Source: Octopus vulgaris
Taxonomy: Eukaryota
Length of the DNA: 64,000 nucleotides
Assembly: GCA_951406725.2 (NCBI GenBank)
Contig: OX597834.1
Location: 34,410,001 to 34,474,000 of the forward strand
Reading direction: 5' to 3'
Shown: one piece after another, positions 2,275 to 41,064 of the stretch
How the letters are laid out: each line of letters opens with the position of its first letter
Numbering within the stretch: position 1 is the stretch's first letter
The notes under the pieces: generated by a model
Told to the model about the DNA's origin: nothing
The model's database searches: none
What the model saw: only the letters and a program-made list of their open reading frames with translations
Position numbers and translations under genes: made by a program

Positions 2275-2289
2275 CTGGCGGCGTGACGT
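2275..2289 (-). CDS. SCAI: Candidate 15-nt alternative microexon of SCAI (adds RHAAR after KEDR)
   Basis: Minus strand: long U-rich tract ...ccttgctattgctgctttggtatcaacag|ACGTCACGCCGCCAG|gtaagatatcatgcatg. Length is a multiple of 3 and it is open in phase 2, like the upstream SCAI exon. It lies in a CpG-containing island between (TA)n tracts. Assignment to SCAI is inference. Confidence 0.6.
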
Positions 2290-2303
2290 CTGTTGATACC
2301 AAA

Positions 2304-2315
2304 GCAGCAATAGCA
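2304..2315 (-). promoter_or_regulatory. UGC motifs at about -15 to -26 of the microexon 3' splice site (SRRM3/4 eMIC-type enhancer)
   Basis: cctTGCtatTGCTGCttt lies between the polypyrimidine tract and the AG. Confidence 0.45.
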
Positions 2316-2391
2316 AGGTTTAAAAAAATAATAGAAATAAAGAAAAAAAAATAGTGACAACGAATGCTTACTTGAAAAAAAATAATGGTAG

Positions 2392-2422
<31 letters not shown>

Positions 2423-2519
2423 GGTGATATCATGACATGGAGGGGTGCAAGTGAGGTGTAAGGATATAGGTTATATATAAATATATATATAAGTATATAT
2501 ATATAGATATACATATACA

Positions 2520-2563
<44 letters not shown>

Positions 2564-3540
2564 CACACACACAAATATATATACATGTATATATGCGTAT
2601 ACATATATAACAGCATAAAAGGCAGAATTGATTAACTTTACAGAAAAAAATTCCTTTTTTTTTTCCTTTCACAATTTTACTACTATGCTGCCAGTATTCA
2701 ATGTCAATTCATTTAAGTTTTGCTATAAAACAAAGCTACAAAAGAACTCTCTTATATAGTCTATATCTAATTTCCCAAATTAATAACAGTTTTTGAATAA
2801 TCAACAATAAATTCAATATTACAGAATTTTCAAAAAAATCGAAGGTAATCAAATATGCCCTTTAGCTTACAATATATATATATACGTATGTATATATACA
2901 TATATATAAAACAAGAATAAGAGCGGAATTAAAATATTGTCACAATTCTGAAATATGAAATTAGACAAAACAAAATATAAAAACACAGGAGAAGTTAATT
3001 GAAGGTGAGGTTATTAATATATCCAAAGGAAATTAAGGGGGTCTTCATTGCAATTTTTAAAAGTTTCTTCAAGAAGTGGACGTTCTTTCAGATAACGATT
3101 ACTATTGAAAGTTCATGCTGATGCTTAGTTTAATTAATACTTGAACAACTACATCTAGTGTCTGACAGTAGGCATTATAGGCACCTATTTGAGACAGAAG
3201 ATGAAACACACTTGCTGATATAACTACAACTATGTGTCTATCACTTGCTGTGCAACCATTTTACCAATTATGTCAATTATCTTGAGGAGATAAAACAGCA
3301 CAGTTATAATATCAGAAATAATTTATAGTATCTAATTTGAGAAGATGGAATGGCAGGTATATATTCTGTAATGTAATTGGTGACATAGTCACTATGCAAG
3401 TGGTAGATACATGCTTTGACAAGTTGTCTTGAATAGGTTCTTATAATTTATAATATCCTAATGTATAATGTCAGTTGCCTTGAATAGGTTCTTGTAACGT
3501 ATAATATCATTTGCAATTAATTCATACATCTAGTCAAACT

Positions 3541-3750
3541 GTTGTTGATGTTTGATATCAAGTCAGCCCTAATCAAACAGACTTATACTCAAAGGTGTAT
3601 CAACTGTTAACATCTTTTCTTTCATTCATATGTGGTGCATCTAGGATGACATTCTCTAATATGTCCTGTTTTTAAAATGACAGGAAGTAATTTAAGGAAG
3701 ACTTGGCTGCTACTCCTAATAAGTTCAATAACTACTCAGAGGCTTTCCCT
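3541..3750 (+). repeat. Representative of an old ~200-bp interspersed repeat (family C), present more than 10 times in both orientations
   Basis: Shared pattern gttgtt...gtcagccct...cagac.tatgatcaaagg...actacattatccaatgtgtcc...aagatggtagggtgtgatttg...gagatttggctgctatttctag. Also near 70-240(-), 13500(+), 22380(-), 30625(+), 34950(-), 40300(-), 46230(-), 51520(+), 54960(+), 57000(+) and 60615(+). Confidence 0.75.
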
Positions 3751-5147
3751 TTAAGAATATTCTGACAAAGCTTTGTTGGTTAGAACTAGTCAACTTGTTA
3801 GTACATATTAATCTACTGACTAAAGGATCAATAGTTTCTGTACCAACATCAACATTGTGCTGTGTTCTTGCCAGGGGCCCAGTTTCACATTGAGGTAACA
3901 GAGGGTAGTTACAGTTTGTTATTGTAAGCAGAAAGGATTATGTGTAACTTATGGGCATTCTATTAGCTTCTAAGGGTAAGAGTTCAAATAAGACCCTAGG
4001 TCTAAAGAAGATATCAGGAAACTGTTGTCTGTTAAGATGAATCTTTCTTTTCAGCCATGACCCATTGACTCAATGAGCTACAGTACATTATTTATAATGT
4101 ATTTCAATGTATAAATCTGCTGGAAGTAAGATATTTTTATAATAATAATATACTGCTCTTCATGAAAGAGGTTATAGAGAACTAGCACTTCAGTAACAGA
4201 TCAGTGGTTATTTTACAATATTATTATTACAGGTATCAGATGCTCACTATATTGCTAATCACTCAAACATAAAGTACCAATGGAATCTATTCTACATTCA
4301 ATAAATATATGAAAAGTGAGAAAATCCTGATAAATTATTCAATAACAATGAAACCAGCCAGTAGTTCAACCCTCACACCCCAATCTATCGACAAGGCTAC
4401 TTGGGCTTAATTTCCTGAGACAAAATAAGTATGTATATAAGTCTGTATATTTATTTATTCATAACCTACACTATTCCCGAGCAAACTATTTGAGCCAAAC
4501 TGAAACTAGCAAAGTTATGGATCTTGGTCAAGCCCATGACATAATGGCTACAGTAAAATTTGTACCTATGCCATATGGACAATAGTCCAACACACTAATC
4601 TCACAAGTGTCATACATACAGGATTGTTCAAGATTAAATTTCATAAGTTTTAACTAATCAATAAAGACAGAGTTGAAAACTGAGTTAGTATTCTTAGAGG
4701 AGCTAAACATTTTGTGAATGATTTTAAAAATTTACATCGAAATATCATTAGATATTCATCTATAAACAAAGACTACTTTTCTTTTTCCAAACTTCCATAC
4801 TTTTGCTGGGATAATAATAACGACTCCTTCATAAATGTTATAAAATTTATCATATGACAAACAGAGGAGAGAGAACAAACAAATAAACAAAAACAAAATG
4901 AAAACTGGTGATAAAAATACTGTCTGAAGCTAACAGCCAATGTATATTTATTATTTAGGAGCTGTAGTTGTTGTTAGTAGAAAAGAAAGTAGTTTGAAAA
5001 GAGAATACTACATATATATACACATATCCAAATACATATTTACATGTTTACACATATATTTATATGCAAATATATATATTATATATATATACACACACAC
5101 ACACACATACACACATAAACATACACACACATACACATGTACATACA

Positions 5148-5548
5148 TGATGGCTGCCCCCTCGTTCTCGAGTATGGCCATTGCATGAAGCTTAACTGTT
5201 ATTGGTGCTGTGATCGAATGTGACTTTTATTTGCTTTTTAATGCTACAGCCTGCCATTCAGTTGAGACTCACAGCACCATCAACAATCATGAACAATGTT
5301 GTTATCGTGCAATGCCTGTGCAAGAAGATTTTCTTTTAAAGTAAGGAAAGGCTATGCACAGAGTCAATCCCACTCACTAAGCAACAGCAGCCATAATCCA
5401 AAAAGAAGAACGAGTCAACATCATCGGTAACCACTGAGCCACAGGTTTTATGTCGGAGTTATCCCAGTTACCTTCTCCTAGAAGGATGCCCTAACAAAGG
5501 TTAGGAGACCTTCACTCCCAATGGTTTAACCGCGTGATCGGGTATTCA
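5148..5548. repeat. Interspersed repeat, probably an RTE-related non-autonomous retroposon
   Basis: CpG-bearing block with sharp boundaries between (CA)/(CATA) tracts; the ttatcccagttaccttctcctag...aaggttagg segment resembles RTE-type ends. Confidence 0.4.
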
Positions 5549-6397
5549 TACATACATACATAAAGAGCAGGCGTATGTATGTGTGTGATTACAAAGTTTA
5601 CATGTTTTCAGATTTAATCCACTATGCAGCACCTTGGCCAAGTGTCTTCAAGTATAACTCCAGAGTTGATGAAAGCCTGTGAGTAGATGTTGTACATGGA
5701 AACTAAAAGAAGCCGACTGTGTGTGTGTGGTGGGGGAGTATGTCCCCTTCTCTTGACATCATATGATATTTGTAAAAGGCTGTCACTGTCATACAATCTG
5801 TGTCATTCATTTCTAATATTCTGAAGGAAAAAACACATGAATGGCTGAGGGAAGATATTACACTGTTTTGAAACAGGAAAGCATTGGTAAGAGGTAGGGC
5901 ATCCAACCATAGAACATCTACCTCAATAAACATTGTTTGACCCATGCAAGCATACAAAAGTTGATGCTAAAGTGATGATGACAATGATACATATCTACAT
6001 ACATACTTATATATACATTTAAATACACACACACACAATCATTTAACATCCACTTTTCCATGCAGGAAGAGTTTACTGCAGAAAAATTTCTACAACCAGA
6101 AAACCCTCACCTGTCACCAACACTCACTAGTTTCTTGGTGAGCTAATATTTACCCATGGCCAGACATTAGTTTGCAGAATATTTAGAAATGACTGACATT
6201 GTTTGTATGAGAGTTACACACATTTACAACTCTCACGTAATGTCAAGACAAGGAGAAAGAATTACACATAGACACTCACACACACATATATACATACACA
6301 TGCTTTTATATGTACATAAGTGTGAGCATGTATATTGTGTGTGTATGTGTATGTATATATATATGTATATATGTGTGTGTGTGTGTATGTGTGTGTA

Positions 6398-6506
6398 TGG
6401 GGAGAATTCACAAAAAAAACAAGAGGAAGACAGGTGGTGTAGACAACAAACAGATGTATTAGTTTAACGCTCAGGAAGTGAAAGTCTTTTGAGCCTACGC
6501 TCTTCC
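6398..6506. mobile_element. Penelope-like element terminal fragment
   Basis: ...aaagtcttttgagcctacgctcttc embedded in (TA)/(TG) tracts resembles PLE pseudo-LTR ends; a similar relic (gaaacagctgttag) lies near 10450-10750. Confidence 0.4.
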
Positions 6507-6534
6507 AATATCTGTATATATATATATGTATATA

Positions 6535-6577
<43 letters not shown>

Positions 6578-6634
6578 ATATATATATATGTGTGTATATA
6601 TATATATGTGTGTATATATATATGTGTGTATATA

Positions 6635-6671
<37 letters not shown>

Positions 6672-6766
6672 GTAAATATATATGTGTGTATATATATATG
6701 TATATATATGTATATATATATATATATATATAAATATATATATATATGTATATATATGTATATGTA

Positions 6767-6815
<49 letters not shown>

Positions 6816-6830
6816 GTGTGTGTGTGTGTA

Positions 6831-7103
6831 TATCACGTGACCACGTGACCAACCAGACATCAGATGTTGTTACACATCGCTGGTCACAATGCGTTTGCAT
6901 TGCTTTAGCCTAAAAATGACGCCACCCCGCTGGCCAACAGAAGAAAGAGTGGGAGAAAGAGTGGTGAAAGAGTACACTGGAGCCTCGTGGAGCTTTAGGT
7001 GTTTTCGCTCAATAAACACTCACAACGCCCGGTCTGGGAATCGAAACCGCAATCCTACGACCGCGAGTCCGCTGCCCTAACCACTGGGCCATTGCGCCTC
7101 CAC
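6831..7103 (-). mobile_element. Young tRNA-derived SINE
   Basis: Minus strand gtggaggcgcaaTGGCCCAGTGGttagggcagcggactcgcggtcgtaggattgcGGTTTCGATTCCc shows Pol III A and B boxes; CpG-rich; the body is not a complete tRNA. Confidence 0.85.
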
Positions 7104-7492
7104 GTGTGTGTATATATATGTATATAAATATGTATATATATGTATGTATATATGTATATATATGTGTGTATATATATATATATGTATGTATATATATATG
7201 TATGTATATATATGTATATATATATATGTGTATATATGTATATATTTGTATATATATATTCTTCTCCTCTCCTTCACCATTCCCTCTCTCTCACTCCTCC
7301 TTCTTGACTCTCTCATCGATGACACATGATGAAAGGGAATCTATCTTTTTGCCCATAATAATCTCAATCCATAATAGAAGACACTTACCCAAGGTGCCAC
7401 ACAGTGAGACTAAAACTGAAACTATAAGGCTGGCAAGTAGACTTCTTAACTACATACTTACTTCAGTGCCTATACATATACAGATGTATATA

Positions 7493-8671
7493 CAGAGTGC
7501 CTCCCCCCCCAAAAAAAATATATACACAAATTGAATGATTATAAAATCAGTGTTTATTAAAATACATTCCATTTTTAAAACTTAATAGAATTTACAGACA
7601 GAAATTAATTTTTTCATGAATGCCTGTTTTCAAAATGATAAATGTTCTGGTCCTGGCACTGGTGGTAATACAAAACAATGGAATCACAAACAACAAAACA
7701 TTTTGTTCAATGGCTGCCATTAGATCATAACTGTGGCTGGTTTGTACTTTAAATTTTTAAAGTATTTCCATAAAAATAGTTTAGTGGTGGTGGAGTTTGA
7801 AGAACATGGAGAGTATTCTACAGAACATCTTTGTTCAATCCACCTGTTTTGCAAATTTCATCCTTATATTACTATTGTAGTGTTGAAGTGTCTCATCTGG
7901 CTGAAAATAAACTCTAGATTTTCAAAGTCTTCTTGAATGCTTGGCATGACATATCACAACAAGTTCAAGTAAATGGGATCAGTTACAATACCATTAAAAA
8001 AAGAGTGGTCTAATTAATCTTTTTGGTGGTAAGCTGCACCATACTTAACCTCTAGTAAATTAATATGATGTTCCTCTGTAATATGTGAACTCTCAGGTCC
8101 CCAAGCTGTAGTGTTTAACTGATCCAATTATATTTAAATGTAGCCTCATCACTCCAAACAATCTTTATTGGAAGGTGTGCTTCTTTATACATCTTGCCAT
8201 GTGTAACCCACAAAACTTCACTCTTCAGTCTCGATCATCTTCATTGACATCTGGGACTTTTCTTGGAATGTAACTCTTCCAATGACAGAGCTTCAAAATG
8301 CAATGGATGCTTGATTTTATAATTCCTGTCTCACAACACACTTGCTACACATTTTCTCGAAATTTGGCAATATGTTTCTAGTGCTCTTTTATTTTTTTGG
8401 AGTCATCAATGATGGCAGTCTTCCAGAACATTTCTTGAAGTCATTCTGAACTAGAGTTCCATCTGCTTCAAGCTTGTCTCTAATTCAAGTGATGGTAAAT
8501 TGTGCAGGTGGATCAGTTTGATACTTCTATCTTCAACTACATTTTCAAACTTCCAGTAGTACTTTCAAAAGACTTTCTTTTGTTTAAAGTACTTCAGCAA
8601 TGTTTTCAAATTTCCAGTAGCACTTTTAAGTCAAATTTCCATTGCCCAAAGCTTAGTCTGGCTCCCTTCAT
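7493..8671 (-). pseudogene. Decayed Tc1/mariner-superfamily DNA transposon with a DUF4817-type transposase relic
   Basis: TA|CAGAGTG terminus at 7491. Minus-strand fragments, with frameshifts and stops: MKGARLSF..., YWKFENVVE, IRDKLEADGT, SGR, IVWSDEATFK (8133-8162), PLFFNGIVTDPIYLNL, MPSIQEDFE. Confidence 0.8.
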
Positions 8672-8699
8672 TATTTTTATTCTAGTGGGTTGAACAAAT

Positions 8700-9270
8700 G
8701 TGTGTGGGGGCTCATCAAAGGCAGATGTAAGAGGGTGTTCAAGGGAAAGGAGTGTTTAATGGAAAACAAAATGTGGGATGGGTGACAAAAGTGATTTAAA
8801 GGAAAGGGATAATCGATAACATGAAATTACAGCACCTGAGTGAGCAGTGCCATTGTTAGAAGAATGATGGACGGATTGGTGTTAGACAGATGAGTTGTGG
8901 GGGGAGGTGTGACAAGGACAGATTGAGTGTGGAGGCATATATACACAAACGGTATGCTTTTAGGGCCTCATTTTTGCTGAGATAGACTGGTATTCTTGAG
9001 CACAGCAAATCAATCATTTTTATCATCTCCAAGAGGCTCAATACCCAAGGCTGGTCTTCACTAATTTCTCCCACACCTTTCTGGATCTTACTCTTCCACA
9101 GGTTCCATCCAATAATCATACCAGCAAGTCTTCTCTCTTGCATAAACGATTCCTCTTACACCCAATTTTTCTCTTGACTGACTTGTCATATATGCATACT
9201 AACAGTGCACATCCAGTGGAACATGCTAGCTTCATTTCTTTGTAGTCTTCACATGTCCTTCACATTCATA
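8700..9270 (-). mobile_element. Old RTE LINE 3' fragment
   Basis: Minus-strand relics (EASMFHWMC, REKLGVRGI, QERRL, GTCGR) followed by pyrimidine-rich 3' UTR-like sequence. Confidence 0.6.
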
Positions 9271-10300
9271 GCACAACAGAAGATTTATATGAAATAATTT
9301 TGATCAAATTACATTATCAAATATTGAGAAATATTTCAAACATTTTGCAATGGAAAACTAACAGTAAGTTCAGAAACTGTTGAGAGTAGTTAGTTGAAAT
9401 TCAACCCCAGCTTTTGACTGGTACTTTGCTTTTACAACCTCTGAAGGATGAAAGGCAAAGTTGACATCAGTGACAGTTAAGATTAGAATGTAAGGGGATG
9501 TTATGAAATAAAACAAGGTATTTTATCCAACAATCTCCAACTCAGGTACAAGGCCTCAAATTTACAGAAAAGAAACTAGAGCCATCCCAGTAGTCAATTG
9601 GTAATATTTTATTGAGTGCTAGAAGGATGAAATGAAAGATTGAATTGAGTGAGATTTTAAATGAGGCCCTAAAAGGCCAGAAGAAATATGGCAAGGTATT
9701 TTGTTGAATGCTCTAATGATTTGACCAATCTCAATAACAATTTATGGTACAAACACAAAACACATTCACAAAGGTATACTGCTAAGAACACCTGTTCATT
9801 AAAAGCATGTTTGGCTAAAAGTTCACTTAAGCATATGTAAGATTACAAAAGGTGCATAACAATGACTTTCTCCAAGACTTTACCCAGATGCATGCAGACA
9901 CACAGCTATTACTAATGTATAATGATGACATCATACAATTTTAAGAAGCACTAATCAGATAGGTGTGCGTGTTTGTGTGTGTGTGTGTGTGATTCTTTAG
10001 ATAGACAGGTAGATAAATAATCAAATGAGACAAATATATTTTTCTCTCATTTGGGAGAACCCAAAGAAGAGCTTCAGGAATTCCCAGAGGAGAGAAACCA
10101 ACATATATATTTGTCACATTCAATTATTTCTTTAAACATTATTATTTACTGTGTAGCTAATACATGAAATTCTTTTCTACAGTCTATAATTATCGTTATT
10201 CTTGTGAACAAACTGCATCTATTTATAGATACAGTTTTATATTCTAAGTGTTCAAACATGTTCCTATGAACGTGTAACCATAGGACTCCTATAATATATG

Positions 10301-10345
<45 letters not shown>

Positions 10346-10758
10346 CGCAACAAAAAGTGTGTGTGTGTGTATGTATATATATATATATCCTTGTTTCAAA
10401 TTGGTCTTATTACCAAATATGATAAATATTTTTACATATTTTTGCATATCAATGGCAATACCATACAACATTGGAAACAGAAACAGCTGTTAGATGGACT
10501 GCAGTCTATTTGCATTGAATTAATAAACAATAATTGATGTACATCAATTGTTCTTCATCAGTACTTCTCCATTTTCTGTTTTCTTTAAATTTTGATTCTT
10601 GATAAACCCATGTTTATCCTTGTCTTTAACTATAACCTATGAGCATAATATGTTCACATATTTAAGTATGTGGTTAAGTATAGGTAATATATCGGTAGTG
10701 TAATGGATACTTCTATCCCTTAGCCGGTTGTTTTAACCCTTAACTCAACTAACCTTTA

Positions 10759-10806
<48 letters not shown>

Positions 10807-10939
10807 CACACACACACACATACATTATATGCACGATGGAAGAGGTAGAGTAATATATAAATAGATATCTAACTATATATATATGTGTAAGTGTATATAT
10901 ATGTATATAAATACACATACACACACACACCATCACTCA

Positions 10940-11615
10940 TACCCCTCCATCTTTTACCTTCCTACCACCAATGAACCTTGCAAACAATGAATGGCCACCC
11001 CACACATGCTCCCATCAATCTGTTTGTGCCAACCTTCACTCATCTATCCATCTCTTCACTCACTTCAACCATCACTTTCTCATTAATATCTCTTATGTCA
11101 CCACCTCACTCTGTTGCTTGCTCACTACTATTCATTACTCCTTCTCTGTCTCACTTCCTTCACTCCACAGCTTTTTTACAACTTCAATACCCTCCTCTTT
11201 CTCTCTCTCTCTCTAACCTACCCCAAACCTTTCTTTCAAGAACTCTCTCTGGATCCTTACCCCTCATTATCTACTTCCTCCCCCACTTCCAACAGTTATT
11301 ACTCCATTACTGTCTCCTCTATCACCCTTTAACAACTATAACTTCGTTTCTCATCACCTTACCTAAATCACCACACTTTCTCTCATTCCTACTTTCTATT
11401 TGTTATAGAAACTCCTTGATGCCCTTTATTCTTGCAAGAATATTTTACTAGTACTAATGTCAGGTAAAAACATCCACCTAGTACACTCTTTAATGTGACT
11501 GGAATTAGGAAGGAAGCTCAGCCTCAGAAACCATGCCAAAACAGATGTTGGAGCATGGTGTCTTCCTCTAATTGTTGAGCCTTGTTGGCCTGGTCAACAT
11601 TATACAGTATGTAGG
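10940..11615 (+). mobile_element. Decayed RTE-related 3' UTR or SINE tail
   Basis: A C/T-rich segment is followed by gtaaaaacatccacctagtacactct...ggaattaggaagg...agaaaccatgccaaaacaga, which resembles the retroposon tail seen elsewhere in the window. Confidence 0.45.
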
Positions 11616-12629
11616 GTGCAGCTTGAACTCTTGGTCCCAAGGCTTGTGGGGTCTTGTAGTTTTGTATAAAATTATTTAAATGTTACTTCAATGAATGCTT
11701 AGCTGTATGGTTTCAGATGGATGGAATCAGAAAACATTTTGTATTGAAACACAGTGAAGGGTGGCTTCAACACTGTTGTAATGCTTTTACTGTTGGGAGC
11801 AGCTATATTTTGATGATGTAAATAATTTATTCATCATCATCATCAATTAACTTCAATCTAAAATGCTTACATTTAGCAGCAAAATCCTATACTAATTAGG
11901 CATGCCAGAATTTCTAAAAAGGCAATGAAAAAAATGAACCAAAAAAAGTACAACTTCCATAAGCACTGATGGTCAAAGAGATATCACACAGGCTAGCAAT
12001 GTTCTCAGTGGGATAAACCAAGTCAATAGACTTTCAGGAGATTGAGATATATCCTGGCCAGAAAGACAAAAATATTGATTAAATTAGCAATACTCACACC
12101 ATATACTTTTATACATTTGTGGGATTTAGGTTATAAACTTGAGTAATAACAAAACCATAGACTTAAAACTTCCAATACCACAGCAGAATGCATTTGTATG
12201 TACATTCTTCTGTGAGAAATCTTATATTGTTAAATTGATTTTTCTTATTTTTCTTTTTTTAAGGAAAGAAAGAAAACAAAATTCAACAGGAATAAAAAAG
12301 ATAACTAATAAAATAAAACCAAAATCAAAGTAAAATTTTCAAAATAGATACAAAATCCGCATCCTCAAAACTTGTTGCTATATATTGCGATAAATTGTAT
12401 TTATTTAATTTTGCCTTCCCTGCAGCAACAAGTTGGTCGAAATGGGACATTGATTACTTTTAAAAAATCTATAGAACAAATCTATAGAACAATACAGCAT
12501 TGCTCTGCTTCAATGAGACTTGCATTCCAGCCACTCCTTTGGGAGCCTCTATGTGGCTGTTTGACCAATTAGAATTAACAGCCAAATCTTCCTCAAATCT
12601 CTTTCTACCATGTTAAATAAGGAAAGGTT

Positions 12630-13040
12630 ATTAGGTGTGATAGGAAGCTTGCTTCCCTACCACATGGTTCCAGGTTCAGTCCCACTGCATGGCACCTTGG
12701 GCAAGTGTCATCTACTATAGCCTGAGACCAACCAAAGCCTTGTGAGTAGATTTGGCAGATGGGAACTGAAAGAAGAACATTGTGTGTGGGTACACGCACA
12801 CACACATATGTATGTATGTATGTGTGTGTGTTTTTGTGTCTGTGTTTGTCCCCCCCATCACTGCTTGACAACCAATATCGGTGTGTTTACATTCCTGTAA
12901 CTTAGCAGTTTGGTAAAAGAGACCAAGTACTAGGCTTTAAAAAGTAAGTTCTGGGATCAGAACATATTTTTAAAACCCCGCAAGGCAGTGCTCCAGCATG
13001 ATTGCAGTCAAATGACTGAAACAAGAAAAAAGATTAAAAG
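12630..13040 (+). mobile_element. Near full-length tRNA-derived SINE (family A in this window)
   Basis: ccacatggttccaggttcagtcccactgcatggcaccttgggcaagtgtc...aaagccttgtgagtagatttgg...(GT)n...gcagtcaaatgactgaaacaag. Further copies or fragments near 5600, 7360, 15630, 16840, 17925, 22915, 33172, 37440, 37960, 41620, 48890, 53900, 58280, 59260, 61820, 62000 and 62380. Confidence 0.85.
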
Positions 13041-15899: not shown

Positions 15900-16085
15900 T
15901 AAAAATTTTTTAAATAACTGTTAAAATCAAACTGCACTCTTCAAAACTTACACTAAGAATAAGTACAAGGTAAAATTATTACCTGCTTTTATAGCAAGTT
16001 GATGCAGGTAGTTTATTCTGTCCCCCTCCAACTCTTAGTTCATGCAATTGTGAAAACTGCATTATTTATGGGATGACCCAATATA
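15900..16085 (-). mobile_element. Mariner-like terminal fragment
   Basis: Minus strand TA-TTGGGTCATCCCATAAATAATGC resembles a mariner TIR. Confidence 0.45.
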
Positions 16086-16315
16086 TGCATACATATACAG
16101 CACATATGCTTACATATGTAACATGCCAACATATATATGCAACTATGCCTATATACACATGCATGAATGCATGGATACATACATACATGCATATATGCAT
16201 GCATACGTACATATATACATCTGACATATACTGTATGTGTGTGTGTTTGTGAACACACACACATATATAGATATCTGCACACGTGCATGCATATGCATAC
16301 ATACATGTATATGCA

Positions 16316-27460: not shown

Positions 27461-27497
<37 letters not shown>

Positions 27498-30400
27498 GTA
27501 CTTGTCTGCACATTTACATATACAAAGAGCTTTGAACTTATCTTCATACATAAATTAAGCTTCAAAGAAATGTGCACAAAACATTATTCATGTGAACACT
27601 TGCAAACAGGCTTTCTTTATACAAAGGCCATGGAAGAAGGTAAGGTGATATGAGATATGGATAATCCAGTAGAAAGGTTGATGGGCTGCTGATGGCATAT
27701 TGTTCAAACCTCGCTGTGACTATTTGTCTGTGCAAGACATATTGTAGTACTGGACTAAACTGACCTTGCTGAAAATAGACATTATTCTTGCTTCATATAT
27801 GTAGAAACCTCACTCAGCTGTAGAAATAATTGCTGAAAGAACCTACATAACAGCAAAATTTGCACCACCATCCAACTAATTTTTAGCAAAGGAGAATATG
27901 GAATGCTATTAAAATATATATGTATATTTGCATATATAGGCACACACACCTTATCCTTGAATGCCTTGAACAGAGTTTCATGCTTTTATAAGCATTTGAA
28001 CTGGATCACTGGTTTTCTATCTAATGTGTTTTTGCTTGTGGCCTTCCCCTATTCTTTTGGATAGCTTATAACACACATATGCATGTATATGTATACAAAC
28101 ACACGAGTACATATATATGTGTAGCTAACTAAACTTACATGAAGAGAAAAACATGAAAGTTTCAGGTGAGAATGTAAATCCTTCATTAGATAACCAAATA
28201 CATTACTTTTGTTATCTACAAACTCTTATAGTATCTTTTTTTTTTCTATATTCTTGTTCATTTGTGTATATTGTCATTAACATTTATAGTATGTACAATA
28301 ATTTTTTCCCCATTGCAATTCTGACCCACTTGTCTCTCCACTTTTCATCACCTTTGATGTATCCAGTCCTCTAGGCATCACACTAACAACTCTTCCCAGT
28401 CTTCCCTCCCCAGAACATCAACCTTCTGGAAACTCCTCCCTGCTCATATCTTTTCTGTAGATATATATTTGCAACAGTTTAACTAGAATAGTAAAGGCAT
28501 CCATCTCACTAGTCTTAGAAGGGGCCTGCAATGGTCATAATTACTGTCCCTTCTTCCACATCCAGCAAGTAAAAAAAGCCTATCAGATAGATTGTACTAG
28601 TCATTCAAAGGTGCAGCTTTGTCATAGATTGTGTCATGCTGAGAATTACATGTATCTGAGGAATGCTCAGCCACTTATACTCTCATTCAACAAGATAGTA
28701 ATTCAGTTGACTGAAGTTGTTCACTGTTGAAACTGAAAGATGGTCTTTTATCACGTACCCTTAAAAAGGACTGGAATAACTTTCACCATAGGACTGCCCT
28801 GTGGCTAAACAACAACAACATTAACATCTCCAACTTTAATTCATTTTTGTCATTACAACTAAATCCATCCTGAAGCACTACCTTCTCTAACTATGAAGAC
28901 TATTTTAACAAAGGCACTGCAAATATTTGTTTCGTTTTGTTTTGCTTGTTTGTTTTTTCTCTCATTTTTCTTTGCTGTACACTATTCATTTTTAATTTCT
29001 TTTTCAAGAAGTAAACAGCATAATCATTCTACTAAAACTTTCAACTAATTTTTCATGTAATGCTTCTATTTCTCTGGCAAAGATCTATCATAAAGATTTT
29101 TTTTATCCTCCCACCCACTATTGCTAAATACAAACTTAATCCCAGGCAATATGCGGACTACTACAAGTTCTAAGTGAGATTTGTTGAGGAAGCTGGTCAA
29201 ATATTTTTACATATATTCTCAAGAAGGTAAAAGTTATTACTCTTGTCTCCTCAAACATAGATTCATATGTAATGCACACAAACACAACAACAATCAACCA
29301 CATTCACAACACAGAAAGTATGTAACACATGAAGTCCATAACACATCCCTCAACCACACAGTATGTAACCCTGATACACTCAAATACATACAAAGTCTAA
29401 AATACACAGAATTTATTATACATACACATACACATTTCAATTAAAAAGTCAGAAGCAATTTCTATCAGGTGTTTTTATCTCAATAGAAATAGGAAAAAGT
29501 CAAATTTAACAAAGGACAAGAAAGAGTTTAATGTATGTCTTTATCCCAGTTAGAACAGATCCTTTCACCTCCACATTACTATTAAGACTTCAGTGATTGC
29601 TACACTCTAAATTTCACACAAGTAATGTATTGTTCTCTCTACTGACAAATTATGTGTGTGTCCGCATCAAAATGAGTTAACTACACAAATAGCATCACGG
29701 TTTTTGTAGTAGTCAGTTCATACAACAACTTATTTTAATATTCAGAATCAATAACCATAAAATCCACTGTTCCAACCAACGTTTCACAGAAATATTCTCA
29801 CATAAAGTATGATAATCTTTTAGTTGAAATCCATTGCATTAAATACAAGACATTGTCACTGAAATTCCAAATGTTATTTCCATCCTAATACAAGAGCTCC
29901 TCACTATTCTTAGCTTTTTTTTATGTCTGTCTTCCTATGCTGGCTGATATAGGTTAGATAAATCTGTATTACAGTATCTTTCCAGTATTTTCTAATCTTG
30001 TGTGTGTGTGGGGGGGCATTAAACTTTTTCATCGATATATCATCTGGAAACAGCTTCTGCAGCATGAAACTTGAAGTAATAGTACAGTAGTTAACCAACA
30101 AATGTATACACACACATGCACACAAAGACATAATAGTGTAGTACCTGTACAAAAGTTACATGGTTTATTTATTTCTCTTTGTCTCTCCTGACTCCACATA
30201 TCTATTTATCTGTCAAATCTCTCTCTCTTTATAATATTTTCTCGCCTTTACCACTCACAGGATAGACATGCTTTCTCCTACCATATTAAATGTTTTATTA
30301 TATCATTTCTCTAATCCCCACTTTTCTGTTGTTGAACTTTCTTTTCCCCAGCCCTTCTCTCTTAATTGTAGCATACTCTTTATATTTCACTGTCTGCTCA

Positions 30401-32592
30401 CTTGAGTACCTGTCTCACTTTCCAGTTGATTGCTAGCATATTTTATCATTTTATCTAAAAACAAATGTCCAAGATATTACAAATGTCATAAAGGCAGTTC
30501 AGAAGTTGAGGGTTCACTTCTGCTCTCTTCAAATTCAAATATTATTCTTTAATTATTGTTCATTATTAATTCATGTATAAATATTAAATAAATCCATAAC
30601 GAATGTCTGTATTATTCTTAGAACAGTTGTTGTTTAAAAGCAGACCAGACAGGATTTAGAAAACCAATGTCAAAAGTATTGTCTAGTCCGTCTTCTAAGA
30701 GTTGTTTAGGATTACATCAACCAATGTGTCCTCTACTGATTTAAGACAGTATAGTGTGATAAGCAGAGATTTAGCTGCTATATCTAGCATGCTTACATGA
30801 TCGCATAGAAGCTCCCTGATGTTTAGGTGATTACATATTATTTTCTTCATCTTCAAAGTTCAACTTTGTAGATGCTGATGCATTGTTCAGTTGGTATTCT
30901 TGTTATTCATCAAGGAACTTTTATTTAACAACTACATCTGTTATTCTAACCAGCATCCCAAGAAACAAAAGCACTGTCATTTTAAGGTACTTTGACACTA
31001 AACTTCAGCAAGAAAGAGACTTCTATGCTACCTGGAGGTGGAGATGGATAATCAAAGAAACAAATATCAGAATAAACAATTCAACTAAGGAAAAATACAG
31101 CCAATTGATAATGATTATAATTCTTGTATAATTCTATTCACATTTTGGATGTATTATAGGAATGCAAATCAACTTTAATTTACCAACCCTAGATGGAAGG
31201 ATGAAAGACAAAGTTGACCTCAGCAAAAATACCAAAACTAAATACTGCAAGGCATTTTGTCCAATATTCTAATGATTCTACCAATCCACTACCTATAAAT
31301 GGAGACAAATGCTTTAGTCTAATATTCAAGTATATTGAAATGACAACACTTTTGTTTCATAGCACAACAGGCAAGTGGTTAAATCAGTAGACTAGTAGTT
31401 AGTAGCATCAAGTTTAAACCCTGGCATAGCTCGAGAATAATCCCCTGAAGACAACTGGTGATAATACTAATCAAAACATTGCTACCATATATGATAAACG
31501 TCTATATTTACAAATTTAAATACCAAAGACAATGGAAATAGGGATATAGTTTAATATATTGACATAATCCTGAGAAGTAGTGACTCAGGAAGGCAGACTC
31601 AGCAACGAATAAATAACATTATTTAAACAATCCTCAAAAAATGTTCAATAAAATTGGAGAAATTTATTAATACTTTTCCAAAGAATTCTCAGAAACATAT
31701 TTTTTCATTACTAAGTAAAATTGTTCTATAAGCAGACTTCTGATAACAACCAGAACATAGGTGTTGTCACTACAAAGTTGTTGACAGCAAGAGTTCCATA
31801 AAATGTCAGAGATTACTTTCGATACATGTCAGTAAAAATAAGATTCAGTAGATGAAGATTTAGGTATGAAACTCAATCTCTATGTCTGTCTACTGCACCT
31901 TGTCTTAATCTGCCATTCTGGCTTTCTTGGATTTTTAGCATTGAAATTGCTTTGTGGAAATCTTATTGTTATAATTATAGGATTTCATTTCTAGAGACTC
32001 TATAGAACAGTTCTCTTAAATAAACAGACAATCATTAGAACAACATCCAAATGACAGATCAACGTCCATAAAAGTGATTCATTATTCAAACATTATACAA
32101 ATGGACTTCAATGGTGACAAATCTTTCACACAGCCAAAGAAATGATGCAGAGAATTCGCTTGGAATCAATAACATTAGCAAGCAGACAGCACTAGCTAGA
32201 ATTCCAGCAGGCAAGAGTTCTAAAAGGGAAAAGTTCTTCTCAGGAATTTTACTCACTCTCATGCTTCAGGCTTTTATCATAATTTGATCATCTCATGGTT
32301 TTGTCATTTATCCACATATTCTAAATCAATCACAGTTAAGTTATTGGCAATAGAAAAAGAAAAAAAAAATCTAATACACTATTTAGCAGAACATCTCCCC
32401 TTGTTTGGAGCTGGAAATAATAACTTAATGAAAGATTCAGATTTCAGTGGAATATTTCTCATCTTGTATGTAATTACCATTGTGTGTATGTGTACGTATT
32501 TTTTATAGAGCAAATTAATTTTAGGGTTCTCTTGATTAAGGTTTCTATTTGAAGTAAATAATTTAAATAAACGTTGGATAATGAACACATAC

Positions 32593-32624
<32 letters not shown>

Positions 32625-33171
32625 ATGAAACTTTCATTATACACACACATGTATATATACAAAACTTATACACACACAACAGCTTGTAGATTTAAGGGAG
32701 ATTATCTTTTTTGTAATGGATTATTGATTGAAGATACTGATTTCAAATAAAAGGTGGTGGTGGTAGTGGTGGTAGCAGTAGTAAAAGCACCAGCAGCAGC
32801 AGTGGTAGTAGTAGTAACAATAACATAACAAAAAAATCTAATAAGTAAATGCTAATATAATCTTGGAGGAAGGTCATCAGAGAAATTACAAAGCAGAGAT
32901 TGCTGTAAATCTATGTTTACTGCAGATGTTCTCTGGCATAACACGAAATTTGTTTGTGTGTATGTTTGCATGTGTGCATATATGTGTGTAACAGTAACAT
33001 TGATAATGCATTATTAACATATTTTCACTCTATTCATTGTTCACAGTCAGCAGATTTTTAGACAAATATCAATTTGTTCTGCTAATCATTGCTTCTTGTT
33101 ATCCATAAATTCATACACACGCACAAACACATGCCACCAGCAAAACAGTTTATACACACCCAAACAGACAT

Positions 33172-33528
33172 ATCTTTTATCTTTTACTTGTTTCACTCAC
33201 TGACTGCGCACATACTGGGGCACTGCCTCAAAGAATTTTTTGTCAAATGAATCAACCCAAGTATTTATCTTTTTTTTTTTAAAAATCGGTCGCTTTTGCT
33301 GAACTGCCAAATTTAAGGGACAGTAACACACCAATGCTGGTTGTCAAGTGGAGGTGGGAGATAAACATAGACACAAAGACAAACAAGCACACACACACAC
33401 ACACACACATACACACACACACACACACACATACACACACACACACACACACAACAAACGTCTCACAGTTTCCATCTATGAAATCTACTCAGAAAGTTTT
33501 GGTCGGCCTACGGCTATAATAGAAGACT
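33172..33528 (-). mobile_element. SINE family A copy, reverse orientation
   Basis: atcttttatcttttacttgtttca...ttttgctgaactg...ggttgtcaag...(CA)n...ggctataatagaagac is the reverse complement of the 12630 copy. Confidence 0.8.
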
Positions 33529-34672
33529 TTGTGTTGACCATTTTCTCCTTCAACTGTAGATCCTTTGATGCTTAAGAGCAATGGCAATGGAGGGCACAAC
33601 TGTGTGGGCAACCACAGAGTCACAAATGCTACAGATTATACCAGACTAGGTGTCTTTATGAATAAAAAAAAAATCTATAAAAGTAATATTATTTCATCAT
33701 TGCAGAGGCACATGACAACCTGACCACAGCATCAACCAAACCTGAGAAGTGAGATCCTCTTTGTAGCAAAAGATAATTGCACAATAAAGCCGAATAGTAG
33801 CTTTGATAATGCACACTTCACAGTATCACTATCTTTGATGTGAAGGAGCTAGGTCCAGTGACAAAATGATCCACAATGGTTAGTAAATCCTCCCAGCTGC
33901 ACAAGGCTACCAGAAATATAGTCTGTCAGAAACTGCCTTAAAGCTGACTGCTATAACTTGTTTTTCTCTAAGGGTGTAATTTCTTAGCCTTTGCCTTCTT
34001 GGTCTGACCTATAAAGCAGCAAGACAGTTGATTTGATGTGTCTTAGAGGGTAAGCTTGCACACTGTATTTCTTAGATTCACTGCTTTGTCCAATCAATGT
34101 TACAAAGCTTAAGTGTGATTGCACATAAAATATAGAACAGTTTAACTTATTTTTTACATGTATATAAAAAAAAGTGAAAGTCATATCAATTTCATTCCAT
34201 TACAAATATTAAAGGTAAAGAGTAGATCTGTTCATTATTAAATACCACATATAATCTGAACTTATTGGGTTTTACATACAACACTTACAAAAAGAAAGGC
34301 ACACTATCAATTTACATATTCACACTTTTGAAAAAATAAAAGAAAAAGAGTTTGAAAAAGGATTTAAGGTGATAGCTAAAAATAAATGTATTTTATATCT
34401 ACATAGGTGTATATGTATGAATGAAAGTATGTGCACGCACACACACACACACACACATACACAGAATTTGTTCATAAACAAAATCATCTCATACCTAAAA
34501 GTTTTGTGCAGTTGATATTAGTCAACAGTACTAATCTCTACATACTTCTAACACAAATATGTGTTGAGCATTTTTCGTTTTTACACAAAAACCACAAAAG
34601 GAAAACATGCATGTTTTGTCATAAATGTGAAAAACAAGAAAAAGCATGAGTGTGTGTGTGTGTATCTATCTA

Positions 34673-34712
<40 letters not shown>

Positions 34713-36340
34713 TATATACACACACATTTATACAAAACAAAACAATGAAGTATTTAAATTTAGAAAATTGCTTTTTTTTTCACTTTTTCACCACATTAAA
34801 ATGAAAATTGATTCTCATCCTAAGAATTAATAGAGTAAATAATGTTGATTGTAAGGCAATGAGGGGGAACAGATTTCTGGAGCAATCATTGGCATAGTAG
34901 TTAAGAATTGTTCTTGTTCCATGGTCAAACATTTCTCCTCCATACAAATATTCAAGCTATCTAATCAGAGAACTTTTATATAGTCATTCAACCTATGTCA
35001 AAACATCAGATAAAAACCTTCCTCAAATCACTTCCTACTCTCTTAAGATAAAATTAAAACACATTGGGTAATGTACTGCCAAATATATGTTATCTGAAAA
35101 AAATAAAAGGATGGTATGCACATGATTAGAACACTTTTAGTCCTAGATGTTTTATGATTGAATGTCCTGCCAAACACCAACCACCTTACAAAGTGGACTG
35201 AGTGCTTTTTACATGGCACCATAATTTGTACTTTATTTTATTGACTCCCCCCCCCCCTTGCCCCCAAGAGATCAAAACCAAAGTTAGTTTCTGCAAGAAT
35301 TGAACCTAGAATGTAGAGAGTCATAACAAATACTGTAAGGCATTTTGTTTGATGCTCTGGAAATTCTGCCAATCTGCTGCCCTCATGGGGCTAAATAATA
35401 ACAGCAACAAAGAACACATTGTATAATGAAGTGCTACAAACACTAGATCTTTAGAATAAAGATAAGACATTCAGAGCTTAAACACCTTTCGAATATAAGT
35501 ATCTTGGATCAGGGCTGAACTGGGACTCTACAACAAAACACAAATGCACATACATGCAAGTACACATACACACACATGTACATGTACACACACCATTTTG
35601 TCTATACAGTGTGAGTAGCAGTGACATCCATAATCAAAGCTGGCCATTTTTAGCACCGAGTTATTGATCTACATGGCAAAATATTGATTGACATCACAAA
35701 AATAGCTGACGTCTCTAATAAGAAATGCATGATGTTTCCAATGAATGTGAAGATACTTGAAGACAACAATGAATTTCCTCTGTGTTTTGCCTATGAACCA
35801 CGTCTTCCATGTGTCTGTATAAAGGGGAGGTTGTGTGAGCAGGGTGGGGTGGGGGGTGACATGCATGTGTGTGCATGTATGTGTGTGTGTGTGCTTTGGT
35901 GATGTAGAAGAACAAGGTTTTTACCTTCAGTTAACAAAGGTTTACTGGGATGATGATGATGATGACAGAACTAGTAATGATTATGGCAATGGTAATGATA
36001 ATGATGTTAGTGGTGGTGGTAAAGACTATTAAGGATAGCTGTTGTGATGATGACGATAGCTTTAGTGGCTATGGTTGTAGTCATGATGGTAATGGGATGA
36101 TAGGTCTAGTATTGACGATGATGAAGCTGCTGATGATGATGATGATTCTTAATGAGTACACAATGTTAATCTTTCATGAAGAAACAAGAAAAAAGAATAG
36201 CATGTAATTTTATTACATATTAAGAGTGAGGATGAGAGGGAGAAGAAATGAGATAGAAGTAGAGAGAGTAAGGGAGAAAAACAGAATTTTTTAAAGTATG
36301 TCTATACACACACACACACAAAGAAAAAGAGTGTGTGTAA

Positions 36341-36372
<32 letters not shown>

Positions 36373-37335
36373 TCAGGCAGACAAACAGACAGACAGATAG
36401 ATAGATAGATAGATTTATATAGATATATAAATAGAGAGTAAGAGAGAGACAGAATTTAAAGAATGAGAGAGATGCAAGAGTTATTAGAACTCCTCAGATG
36501 AATGAGTGATGGCTCAGTATTAAAACAGTTTGTTTCCACTAATAGGTTTCAGTTTATAGAAATAACTGAGAACAATTCTATTACAACTTCCGGTGACATT
36601 CAGATTGTACAGATCTCCCCCATTCCTCATCATAACCAGGACATTAAAAAAGAAAATGATGAGGGAAGCTTTAATCAATGCTGGTTTTACGTTTATGATC
36701 ACTGAAGACTTATCAAAAGATACGAGAAAATGAAAACTAAAATCTGAGGAAATTAGTGACAGTCTGGTGGGGATCTGGCAAAAGAAAAAATAAAGAAATA
36801 AAAAAAAGTTATAAAAAAAAACTGTAAAATTTTACAAATTTTATAAAGATGTAAACTTAAAACAGTTTCTCGACCCAGATTCTTGACAACAACCACAAAT
36901 AGTGGTGATCAAATTTCAAAGATTAGCTTAAACATGGAGAATAAGAAACAAGAAGCCACATCTTTACAGAAAAATCATTTAAAGAAAAAAATTTTTGTTT
37001 GTTTGTTATTCCCCCTCTCCCCACCCACAAACAAAAAAATAACCTTATCAATAGTCACAACTGAAATTTAAATAAAAATTCTATATTTTTCCAACAATGT
37101 CAAATGAGGTGCAGAAGATGTATTGATGTCATGCAGACTAGTTCAATGGATTAAATTGTAGATAAAAGATCAAACTGAAGAGAACACCATATTATATAGA
37201 TTGAGAGTGACCAAATAGATGTGAGTTAGCCACAAGCAACTTTTGACAATTAGTGTACAGATTACAGAATTACTTCATTGGTGAAACTTCTTTTTCTAAC
37301 ACTGCAAACATATGAACAAATAGAATATATATATA

Positions 37336-37395
37336 TAACCCATGCTAGCATGGAAAGCGGACGTTAAACGATGATGATGATGATGATGATGATGA

Positions 37396-37398
<3 letters not shown>
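37336..37398 (+). mobile_element. Extremely 5'-truncated retroposon 3' tail inserted in (TA)n
   Basis: aacccatgctagcatggaaagcggacgttaaac(gat)n flanked by TA repeats, with CpGs intact. Confidence 0.7.
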
Positions 37399-37432
<34 letters not shown>

Positions 37433-38396
37433 TGGAGATACAGCTAAGTGATTAAGAATTTTATTTCACAATCACACAGTTCAGGGTTTAATTCTATTGT
37501 GTGACACCTTGAGTTGGCCAATATCTTGAATGTAGAATCTGGCATCCACAAACTGTTTATTGTATAAAAAAGATAAAGAGGATTCTTTAACCTTGTCAAA
37601 TACAGCATTTCTAGAGCCAGTGGCATGATGAAACATACCCAATCTATGTTGTGAAATAGTTTGTGATAGGATGTGTATCCAACTACAAATATCTGTGCCA
37701 AAAAAACACAACATATCAAATAGAGTTAGCTAGTTTTCTGTTGCTGTGTGTCACTGATGAGAAAGAACAGCATCAGTGTAGAAATATTGTGGGATCCATC
37801 ATAGAAAAGTAGAGTAAAATGATGATCATGATCACAATGATATGTACATGGGTGTGAGTGTGCCTGTATTTATGTTTATTGATATAAGTAGGTGTGTCAA
37901 GTTACATTCCTTTATGTTAAATGGTCAACTAATCATCCAATAAATGAAGAATACTAAAAATAAGTACAAAATTGAAATAAGTACTGGGTTCAATGTTGTC
38001 AAAACTCTTGAGAGCATTGCTCCCACATGACCACTGTCTAATCACTGAAATGTGAAAATAAAAAGTTAAAAATGATATTATGAAATGCTGATTTCCCACA
38101 TTAAAGCAGAGCCTCAAAATGTAAGGCAGTTGATTAATCATCCCCAGTACATATTTGGTACTTATTTTTATTGAACCTGAAGAGATGAAAGGCAAAGTGA
38201 ACTTAGACAAGATTTTAGTTTAGAAAGATGTAGCTTAACACTTTATAATTTCTGCTGCTTCACCACCCTTATATATTATTGATATACAATATTTATATAC
38301 AACTGTAAGATATATACATATATATATATATATATATATTGTTTTTGTATTTGGTTTACAAGATTCTTTATGTGAATTCGTGCATTGAAGCATACT

Positions 38397-38660
38397 ATAT
38401 TGCGTCTGGGGAGAGTCATTCTGTTTTAATACCTTATTAACACACTCACCGGTTCCATTTCCACTCATTTACTTATTTATCTTTTCTAAAATTTCCGTTG
38501 CTTCTTGCTGCCTTTTCAATAGGCATTCAATAGACTATTGAAGAGGTAGCAAGAAGCAACAAAAATTTTAGGAAAAATAAATAAGTAAATGAGTGGAAAT
38601 CGAACTGGTGTGTTAATTAATAAGGCATGAAAATGGAATGACTCTCCCCAGACACAATAA
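38397..38660. mobile_element. Palindromic MITE with arms of about 125 bp and a very short spacer
   Basis: tattgcgtctggggagagtcattc ... gaatgactctccccagacacaata; the arms pair almost to the centre near 38525. Confidence 0.85.
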
Positions 38661-39044
38661 TATATGTAAGTAGGTAGGTGGGTGAATGGGTGGGTATTGG
38701 GTAGGTATGTAAGTAGGTTAGATAGATAATAGCATCTTGATATTCTACAATATAAATTTCTTTTAACAAAAAAAAAAAACATAAATCTTGTTGATGTGTA
38801 ATGGATTACATTGAACTCCAGTACTTCACTTCTTATTGATGTTGGAGTGGATGAAGAGCAATGTCAGTTTATGTTAATTTTGAACTTTATAATTTAAAGT
38901 CATAAACCTGAACATTTAATGCCCTCAGCTATTGCTTCCACTCTATAGGTCTATGACACTCTTCAATATTAAAACTTCAATCATAAGAGGAAAATTATGC
39001 CCCATTACATATTACACCAATAATAATAATAATAATAATAACAA

Positions 39045-39494
39045 CAACTTCTAACTAAGGCACAAGGCCAGCAATTTGTGGAGGGAGATAGGTAGCTAAT
39101 TAAATCAATCATCCCTATACTTAACTTATACTTAATGAAACCTGGAGATGAAAGGCAAAGTTGACTTTGGTGGAATTTGAACTCAGAAATATAAAGGGCT
39201 CTAGCTAAATACAACAAGGCATTTTATCCAATGCTCTAACTATTCTGCCAATGCAAATGATAAATAACAATGATTCCTAATTTAGACACAAGGCTAGCAG
39301 TTTCGAGAGGAGGGAGTTAGACAGTAACTATTAACCCCACTAATTGACTTGTACTTTAGTTTATTGATTCCAAAGGGATGAGAGGCAAAGTTAACCTTGG
39401 CAGGATTTGAAGTCAGAAAGTAAAAAGCCAGAACAAATAATGACATTTTATCTGATATGCTATTGATTCACTAAATGAAATAATAATAATAATG

Positions 39495-39542
<48 letters not shown>

Positions 39543-40167
39543 GCTACTGGTAATTTTTGGTAAAGAGGGGTTTGGTCAATTACCTCGACCTCAGTGCTCA
39601 ACTAATATTTATTTTATCAACCTTGAAACATAGAGGCGGAAAAAATGTCACTAAGCATTTTGTCCAATGCAATAACAATTCTGCCAGGTCACCACCTTCA
39701 TAATAATAATAATAATAATAATTAATAATAATAATCCTTTCCACTATAGGCACAAGGCCTGAAATTTGGGGAGGGTGATAGTCGATTACATCAACCCCAG
39801 TACTCAACTTATTTTATAAACCCCAAAAGGATGAAAGGTAAAGTTGACCTCAGAGGAATTTGAACTCAGAACATAAAGACAGATAAAATACCACTAAGCA
39901 TTTTGCCCAGCATGCTAATAATTCTGCCAGTTTACTGCCAATAATAATAATAATAATAGTCCTTTCTAATTTTGGCACTAGGCCAGCAATTTTGGAGGAG
40001 GAGGTAAGTCAATTACATCAACTCCAGTAGTCAAATGGTATTTATTTCATCGACCCCGAAAAGATGAAAGGCAAAATTGACCTCAGTGGAATGTGTGCCC
40101 AGAACATAAGCAAGAACAAAATGCAGCTAAGTATTTTACCTGGCATGCTAATGATTCTGCCAGCTCA
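39045..40167 (-). mobile_element. Head-to-tail array of about 5 family-B SINEs separated by (AAT)n
   Basis: The core gatgaaaggcaaagttgac...gaatttgaactcagaa or a variant recurs near 39147, 39377, 39830 and 40064, with a partial copy near 39550-39700. Confidence 0.85.
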
Positions 40168-40227
<60 letters not shown>

Positions 40228-40965
40228 AATAATAATAATAATAATATTTTTTTAAATAGGTATATTTATTGGTTGAATTCATCAATTAGCTTTGAGAAGA
40301 GAGGGAACTTCAATGTTGGAATAAAATGCAAGATAGTCATGGTTGAAAATACTTCTGATCATAAATTTGCTGGATCAAGGCTGATCAAGGACTGAACAAC
40401 AACATCTAGTATGGTGATTCTATTGTCCAGTGAAAGAAGTTCAAAATATTTACATTTTCTTAACTGATATATTGACAGGTGTTGTGGATGGAGAGAGGGG
40501 AAGGGGTGATCAAGTAGGAATATATCAATTAGACAGGAATGTAGCAGAGAATTAAGTGATACTTCATCGTACTAATTCACATGTACACATAACACGTTAA
40601 CACACTGAAATAAGAACGGTGAGAATCAATATTCATTGGCAGCAGATCCAAACAGCAACAGCAGCAACAACATTAACAACAACAGCAACAGCAGCAGTAG
40701 CAGCAACAAAAAGAAAAAAAACAAAAAATATATTAAAAATATTGTGAAACAAAAGACGGGAGAGAAACTGGTGGGGAGTGGAAAGAGAGAAAAATACTGT
40801 GACAAACAACTAAGGTTGTGCATTAAATATAGGTCAGAAAAAGATGCAGAGGTTGGGGAAATACAAGGAATGTTCGGCAATGCCAAGACCAAGAGTAAGA
40901 TTTATTAGAGTAAAAAAAGTAAAAAGAGAGAAAATTAAAAGATCCATTTAGCTTGTTACACTTAC

Positions 40966-41064
40966 CTGTCCTCTTTGTTTGCCTTTGAGTAATATGCTCG
41001 CATACGGATTGCTGAGTAGAACGAAAATGATTCATTTAGGTAGTTTGTTTCACTAGTTCGTAAA
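40966..41064 (-). CDS. SCAI: Internal coding exon of SCAI (suppressor of cancer cell invasion) ortholog, 99 nt, phase 2-2
   Basis: Minus strand reads ttttttgttctttttcag|TTTACGAACT...GAGGACAG|gtaagt. It translates to (Y)LRTSETNYLNESFSFYSAIRMRAYYSKANKED(R), closely matching vertebrate SCAI as recalled (YLRTSETSYLNEAFSFYSAIRQRSYYSQVNKEDR). Both splice sites are canonical and strong. Confidence 0.92.

Follow-up and report, generated by a model that had tools for sequence, protein, structure and literature searches.

Two frame-preserving optional exons at one junction of the Octopus vulgaris SCAI gene, within a 46-kb intron

The SCAI locus and exons A and B

We analysed a stretch of 64,000 nucleotides (nt) of Octopus vulgaris DNA (assembly GCA_951406725.2, contig OX597834.1, positions 34,410,001 to 34,474,000; G000:C21:34410001-34474000 in our coordinates), referred to below as the window, which carries part of the gene for SCAI. 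Two short cassette exons, named A (36 nt) and B (15 nt), lie within one intron of this gene at one junction of the protein, where they add 12 and 5 amino acids (aa), respectively. Both are already present in public gene models and are not new as exons. All SCAI features are on the minus strand, and positions without a contig label are those of the window.

40966..41064, minus strand: constitutive SCAI exon of 99 nt, phase 2-2, LRTSETNY...SKANKED(R), flanked by AG and GTAAGT; identical to the RefSeq octopus isoforms
20468..40965, minus strand: intron segment 5' of exon A, 20,498 nt
20432..20467, minus strand: cassette exon A of 36 nt, phase 2-2, +12 aa, IKWKENLCAQN(R), flanked by AG and GTAAGT; in 5 of 9 cephalopod records, always together with B
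2290..20431, minus strand: intron segment from A to B, 18,142 nt
2290..2366, minus strand: acceptor region of B, AG-free over 75 nt, with a T-rich tract at some distance from the AG and three TGC at -26, -20 and -17
2275..2289, minus strand: cassette microexon B of 15 nt, phase 2-2, +5 aa, RHAA(R), flanked by AG and GTAAGA; in 8 of 9 cephalopod records
1..2274, minus strand: portion of the final intron segment, which measures 7,693 nt and extends outside the window
G000:C21:34404485-34404581, minus strand: next constitutive exon of 97 nt, starting in phase 2, (R)PDLMVKKLRYYARF..., about 5.4 kilobases (kb) beyond the first base of the window

Pfam SCAI (PF12070) gave 10 exon matches above the cut-off, all within a single locus on the minus strand around the window. 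The joined genomic exons were identical to the RefSeq isoforms X1, X2 and X3 from residue 34 onwards (554 of 554, 542 of 542 and 537 of 537 residues, respectively), and the PF12070 matches together with this full-length orthologue assign the gene to SCAI. SCAI residues 1-33 were not located in 163.5 kb of surrounding sequence. The original prediction, made from the letters of the window, had placed two candidate cassettes in an intron longer than 40 kb, preceded by one constitutive SCAI exon; the intron proved to be 46,384 nt long, the exon at 40966-41064 was confirmed, and a six-frame motif scan found no KKLRYYARF exon in the window. The next exon, which lies beyond the window, has a phase 2 start, as expected. 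Since the genomic exons translate to X1, X2 and X3 without difference, the interval from 20.5 to 41 kb hides no constitutive exon. Exons A and B have AG and GT flanks and keep the frame, as alternative cassettes should, and all four combinations of the two are stop-free in frame, which bears out the prediction that these phase 2-2 exons are mutually compatible.

The spliced join was seen in a 794-nt contig (contig 2) of run X1, in which the next exon is followed by B and then by A (the first 30 letters past the next exon were checked). In RefSeq, both O. bimaculoides (XP_014777914.1, XP_014777988.1 and XP_014778064.1) and O. sinensis (XP_029649245.1, XP_029649246.1 and XP_036367730.1) have isoforms X1, X2 and X3 of 587, 575 and 570 aa, which are the +17, +5 and +0 forms, respectively. 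The O. vulgaris model CAI9738508.1 is the +5 form. Inclusion and skipping are both recorded, the skip form in RefSeq models of the two species only. The contig and the three RefSeq forms demonstrate that both cassettes are real and optional at one junction, and that the gene is not limited to the skipped isoform. When about 6% of each of three raw RNA runs was sampled, no read ends diverging at the acceptor of the next exon reached the threshold for listing among the seven reads obtained there.

All 12 members of the cephalopod protein cluster were read. The junction is absent in P0124, P0126 and P0131, leaving nine informative records, of which five are +17, three are +5 and one is +0. The +12 form occurred in none of them, which hints at a nested series, and a search of short proteins aimed at a +12 fragment gave 84 matches, none with either cassette. 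The predicted set of four isoforms stands in so far as all four are in frame and three of them are recorded; the nine records are too few to exclude the fourth. P0126 (UniRef A0A0L8IHM0), from O. bimaculoides, begins with about 88 residues unrelated to SCAI that join at the exon after the 46-kb intron, and is likely a gene-model error across long introns.

Five Logan proteins have all five residues that distinguish the cuttlefish protein P0124 from octopus, and their inserts are unchanged (A and B in four, B in one). From these cuttlefish-type records we infer that A and B are conserved across octopods and decapodiforms. Octopus and cuttlefish split roughly 270 million years ago. No publication on the octopus SCAI exons A and B was present among the matches listed, as judged by titles and the openings of abstracts. 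We take CG13293 to be the identifier of the fly SCAI gene. Neither this identifier nor 'SCAI' occurs in one supplement of PMC8797185.

The predicted loop and inserts at the same junction in other animals

The insertion point was mapped on two AlphaFold models, one of the skip form (66 sequences; predicted local distance difference test (pLDDT) score of 78) and one of the +17 form (81 sequences, pLDDT 82). In the former, a loop (residues 124-127) separates helices 102-115 and 120-123 from helix 128-147; in the latter, residues 127-142 have a pLDDT below 50 and the following helix is retained. A and B are thus predicted to enter a surface loop between conserved helices, the mean column conservation of the two flanks being 0.91 and 0.89 (81 sequences). 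The predicted charge of the loop increases from +1 in the skip form to +3 with 5 aa and +5 with 17 aa. No SCAI relative was found in the PDB by sequence, and Foldseek gave nothing at E ≤ 0.001 (best E of 1.4e-3, with the skip model).

Inserts at this junction were then counted in two sets of proteins. Set 1 comprised 71 near-full-length proteins obtained by querying with an unrelated exon; 17 of the 70 proteins covering the site had inserts at aa 120-129 (13 distinct), and each of the other 10-aa bins within aa 10-209 had inserts in at most two proteins. Set 2 comprised all 414 fetched proteins, 340 of which span the junction, and is biased since it was gathered partly with an insert-bearing query. 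In this set, 104 of the 340 proteins had an insert, giving 36 distinct strings of 1-27 aa. The first letter was R or S in 29 of the 36 strings, in agreement with what a phase-2 AG|N codon would give. Among the 414 proteins, the A and B peptides of octopus occurred in cephalopod records only.

Forms with and without an insert were found within the same species in three scallops (+2), three Haliotis (+15), two Patella (+6), Pomacea (+7), Mya and Dreissena (+6) and Schistocerca gregaria (+6), and the named tick and Daphnia records spanning the junction had an insert in every case seen. The inserts of scallops, abalone, limpets, locusts, ticks and crustaceans differ in sequence. Altogether, different inserts at the same residue, accompanied by skip forms of the same species, occur in at least seven lineages, and those outside octopus are known from proteins alone. 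These comparisons suggest that the junction is likely a splicing hot spot that animals have reused many times, rather than a new system. The original prediction had proposed lineage-specific tuning of one SCAI surface loop; the two peptides are indeed restricted to cephalopods among the proteins examined, but the site itself takes inserts in many bilaterian lineages. Several inserts have a histidine near their end (coleoid RHAAR, SPHDR, tick SLPYSHR, horseshoe crab GSLPHR and Haliotis ...SHDR), and this recurrence possibly reflects shared origin or constraint.

The pattern resembles the type I convergent tissue-specific exons of spg/DOCK3/4 and syd/SPAG9/MAPK8IP3, in which different short exons occupy an equivalent intron in several lineages, as outlined in the available text of 10.64898/2026.09.05.749416. 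Those exons are tissue-specific; the SCAI inserts outside octopus are known as protein records. SCAI is not named in the main text of that work, which includes O. bimaculoides.

Regulation of exon B, favoured explanation and alternatives

SRRM-type neural microexons are limited to a length of 27 nt or less. Exon B (15 nt, a multiple of three) falls within this limit, and A (36 nt) exceeds it. At the acceptor of B, 75 nt are free of AG, the T-rich tract is set back and TGC occurs at -26, -20 and -17, and sites of this kind (YAG with at least three TGC and an AG-free zone of at least 60 nt) numbered 3 of 3,499, B included, in the three long introns of the gene. A long AG-free zone combined with UGCs near the acceptor is the architecture of exons controlled by the enhancer of microexons (eMIC) domain of SRRM proteins, as given in the available text of 10.1101/2021.02.24.432780 and 10.1101/2024.09.17.613571. 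Several constitutive exons of SCAI also have long AG-free zones, so that the zone alone is not diagnostic. Exon B is like the neural microexons governed by eMIC/SRRM3/4 (Srrm234) in being short and frame-preserving and in having an AG-free zone, a set-back pyrimidine tract, UGCs and a good donor, and unlike them in having no upstream CUAAY or UCUC; A differs from them in its 36-nt length and the absence of UGC. The CUAAY branch point and UCUC tract are described as enrichments and not strict requirements in what is available of the same two sources. Upstream of A, UCUC occupies -15 to -12, and a CUAAC lies at -7, which is too near for a usual branch point.

A and B are true optional exons that keep the frame and lengthen the predicted helix-helix loop by 5 or 17 residues. 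We consider it probable that they provide tissue-regulated tuning of the contacts of the loop with partners or DNA, at a junction that has likely been reused often by animals. The two exons would be used in a nested order, from none to B to A and B, instead of in free combination. As the architecture of its acceptor suggests, B may be a neural-biased microexon under a regulator of the SRRM234/eMIC type. Human SCAI helps repair DNA. The human protein is described as binding single-stranded DNA (ssDNA) in the available text of PMC9584372, and vertebrate SCAI as binding a REV3 peptide in that of PMC8982572. The inserts may alter how SCAI binds ssDNA or partners such as REV3. A bolder version of this explanation, in which the loop of the N-terminal helical repeats of SCAI is an exon-birth hot spot across bilaterians and coleoids have made from it a two-step, neuron-biased charge rheostat (+0, +5 and +17 aa; net +1, +3 and +5) that tunes ssDNA or partner binding in the brain, is speculative and in our view unlikely.

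Several observations weigh against the favoured explanation. The transcript evidence is one contig of a run presumed to be RNA, and the three raw RNA runs gave four, two and one reads on the next exon, which is not enough for isoform counts. The RefSeq octopus isoforms agree with ours in exons, in peptides and in the +17, +5 and +0 forms; they differ in being automated models only, with no +12. Splice-site scores do not set A and B apart from decoys. The acceptor of A has a 48-nt AG-free zone and no TGC within 40 nt, and that of B has neither a CUAAY branch motif nor a UCUC tract within 100 nt. The whole of SCAI evolves slowly (the two cephalopod types differ at 8 of 587 aa), and the unchanged inserts therefore indicate a constraint like that on the rest of the protein, not a stronger one. 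The partner-binding surface of vertebrate SCAI is not mapped in the available parts of PMC9584372 and PMC8982572, and for this reason the loop can only be presumed to influence binding. Some of the inserts in other lineages may result from shifted acceptors, from fixed indels or from errors in the models, and some of them resemble pyrimidine tracts of shifted acceptors. Finally, aa 280-289 of the skip isoform form another indel hot spot, which is larger (42 of 71 proteins, 38 distinct inserts), and the A/B site is thus not unique in SCAI. The zone at aa 280-289 has low model confidence, lies near an exon junction outside the window and has no recorded insert in octopus.

A fully combinatorial pair, in which A and B are chosen independently to give four isoforms, is compatible with the open frame of all four combinations, and the missing +12 form is not significant: independent use at inclusion frequencies of 5/9 and 8/9 would, by our own arithmetic, leave it unseen in nine records about 57% of the time, which also tells against the nested order. 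The finding of A only with B is for this reason treated as a lead. We nevertheless regard independent choice as somewhat unlikely, given that +12 is absent from all nine junction-spanning cephalopod records, that the whole 12-member cluster was read, that the RefSeq sets of two species give the same three forms, and that neither cassette turned up in any further record when shorter proteins were searched. Far less probable is the idea that A and B are stepping stones, or recursive splicing exons, that help to remove the 46-kb intron in pieces. It had been suggested by a roughly even spacing of the cassettes, and ratchet-like YAG|GT sites occur at 22596 and 22495; however, the 20.5-, 18.1- and 7.7-kb pieces into which included exons split the intron are uneven. 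Recursive splicing, as presented in the available text of PMC8605326, shares with this case a long intron with internal short exons, and differs in that its RS-exons are defined by a donor at their 5' end. Such a donor is missing in A and B, whose starts (CAG|AATAAA and CAG|ACGTCA) have donor scores of -6.3 and -9.8; once spliced in, they would thus not be removable recursively. A skip isoform is found in public models, the adjacent upstream introns (44,554 and 39,332 nt) have no cassette in any cephalopod record, and ratchet-like sites number two sense versus one antisense in the 46-kb intron, compared with one versus one and two versus zero in its neighbours. The stepping-stone idea was rejected on these grounds, and A and B are likely not needed to splice the intron, which is long like its two upstream neighbours.

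Tolerated neutral variation, meaning that the loop accepts any short insert and that exons arise and persist there without a regulated function, would account for the 36 distinct strings of 1-27 aa in different lineages and for the predicted disorder of the octopus insert. We judge it quite unlikely, since cuttlefish-type records have the same two peptides as octopus, the acceptor architecture of B is rare in the three long introns, and related inserts are kept by related species (ticks, scallops, Haliotis and Mya/Dreissena). Equally improbable is a single ancient, fast-diverging microexon behind many of the protostome inserts, with B as its coleoid form and A added later. The commonest insert length of 5-6 aa (16 of 36 strings) and the histidine near the end of several inserts agree with such an origin; against it, many inserts have no likeness at all (YG, SVQM, YELQ, SLSQVQI and SDVLCC), many species have only records without an insert, and 5-6 residues are too short to establish homology.

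Two very small exons read by eye in a 46-kb intron prove to be real and fit known classes, namely cassette microexons and recurrent exon sites. Their main value lies in the comparison, as a junction in a near-invariant part of SCAI takes different short inserts in molluscs, nemerteans, chelicerates, crustaceans and insects. Recurrent inserts in such a part point to a probable regulatory surface on a protein that has no solved relative by sequence. Exon B is, in addition, a testable candidate for a neural microexon in cephalopods.

Splice signals, sequence context and other parts of SCAI

The splice-site matrices used were crude and were built from SCAI's own sites (one donor 1 nt off). Stop-free candidate exons of 3-51 nt with a length divisible by three that scored at least as high as the cassettes numbered five in sense (A and B included) and two in antisense in this intron, and two versus three and three versus four in the two neighbouring long introns. 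Antisense decoys were equally frequent, and the scores were therefore dropped as a proof of A and B. As they perform no better than chance, it is transcripts and homologues, not signals, that establish the two exons. Further stop-free candidate exons of 27 nt (and 21 nt) lie at 20981-21007 and 7389-7415 on the minus strand with scores matching those of A and B; they occur in no protein record, and their frequency is that of antisense decoys.

The ratchet-like YAG|GT pair on the minus strand (22495 and 22596) is separated by 101 nt and lies about 2 kb upstream of A; one acceptor scores a strong 11.9 bits, and the number of such sites is close to that in antisense. Across G000:C21:34381862-34535133, the introns are sharply split in length, with three in a row of 44.6, 39.3 and 46.4 kb followed by ten of 0.65-5.6 kb.

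The C-terminal half of SCAI (residues 241-575), encoded by minus-strand exons within G000:C21:34381862-34397407, outside the window, was compared with known structures. In model m3f32c5e2931e, residues 241-575 aligned with the N-terminal caspase-like region of Raptor (VIA-align Z of 20.2, 263 aligned residues, root-mean-square deviation of 3.7, 16% identity). Caspases and metacaspases gave Z of about 12, far below Raptor. The C-terminal half is thus predicted to have a Raptor-like caspase fold. No report of a likeness between SCAI and Raptor was present in the literature searched, and this fold may interest SCAI specialists more than exons A and B. The N-terminal half matched tetratricopeptide repeat (TPR) proteins with Z of 11.2-11.8, within the noise of helical bundles, and a 'TPR-like' assignment from the model is a lead only.

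A search for a repeat origin of cassette A returned only its self-match in the genome (G000; the search skips common words), and Rfam gave 0 matches. Open reading frames of at least 110 aa in the window are mostly read-throughs of simple repeats. Three stretches of about 200 nt that resemble one another, with (AAT)n tracts between them, were noted by eye at about 39550-40170 and are probably a dispersed short repeat.

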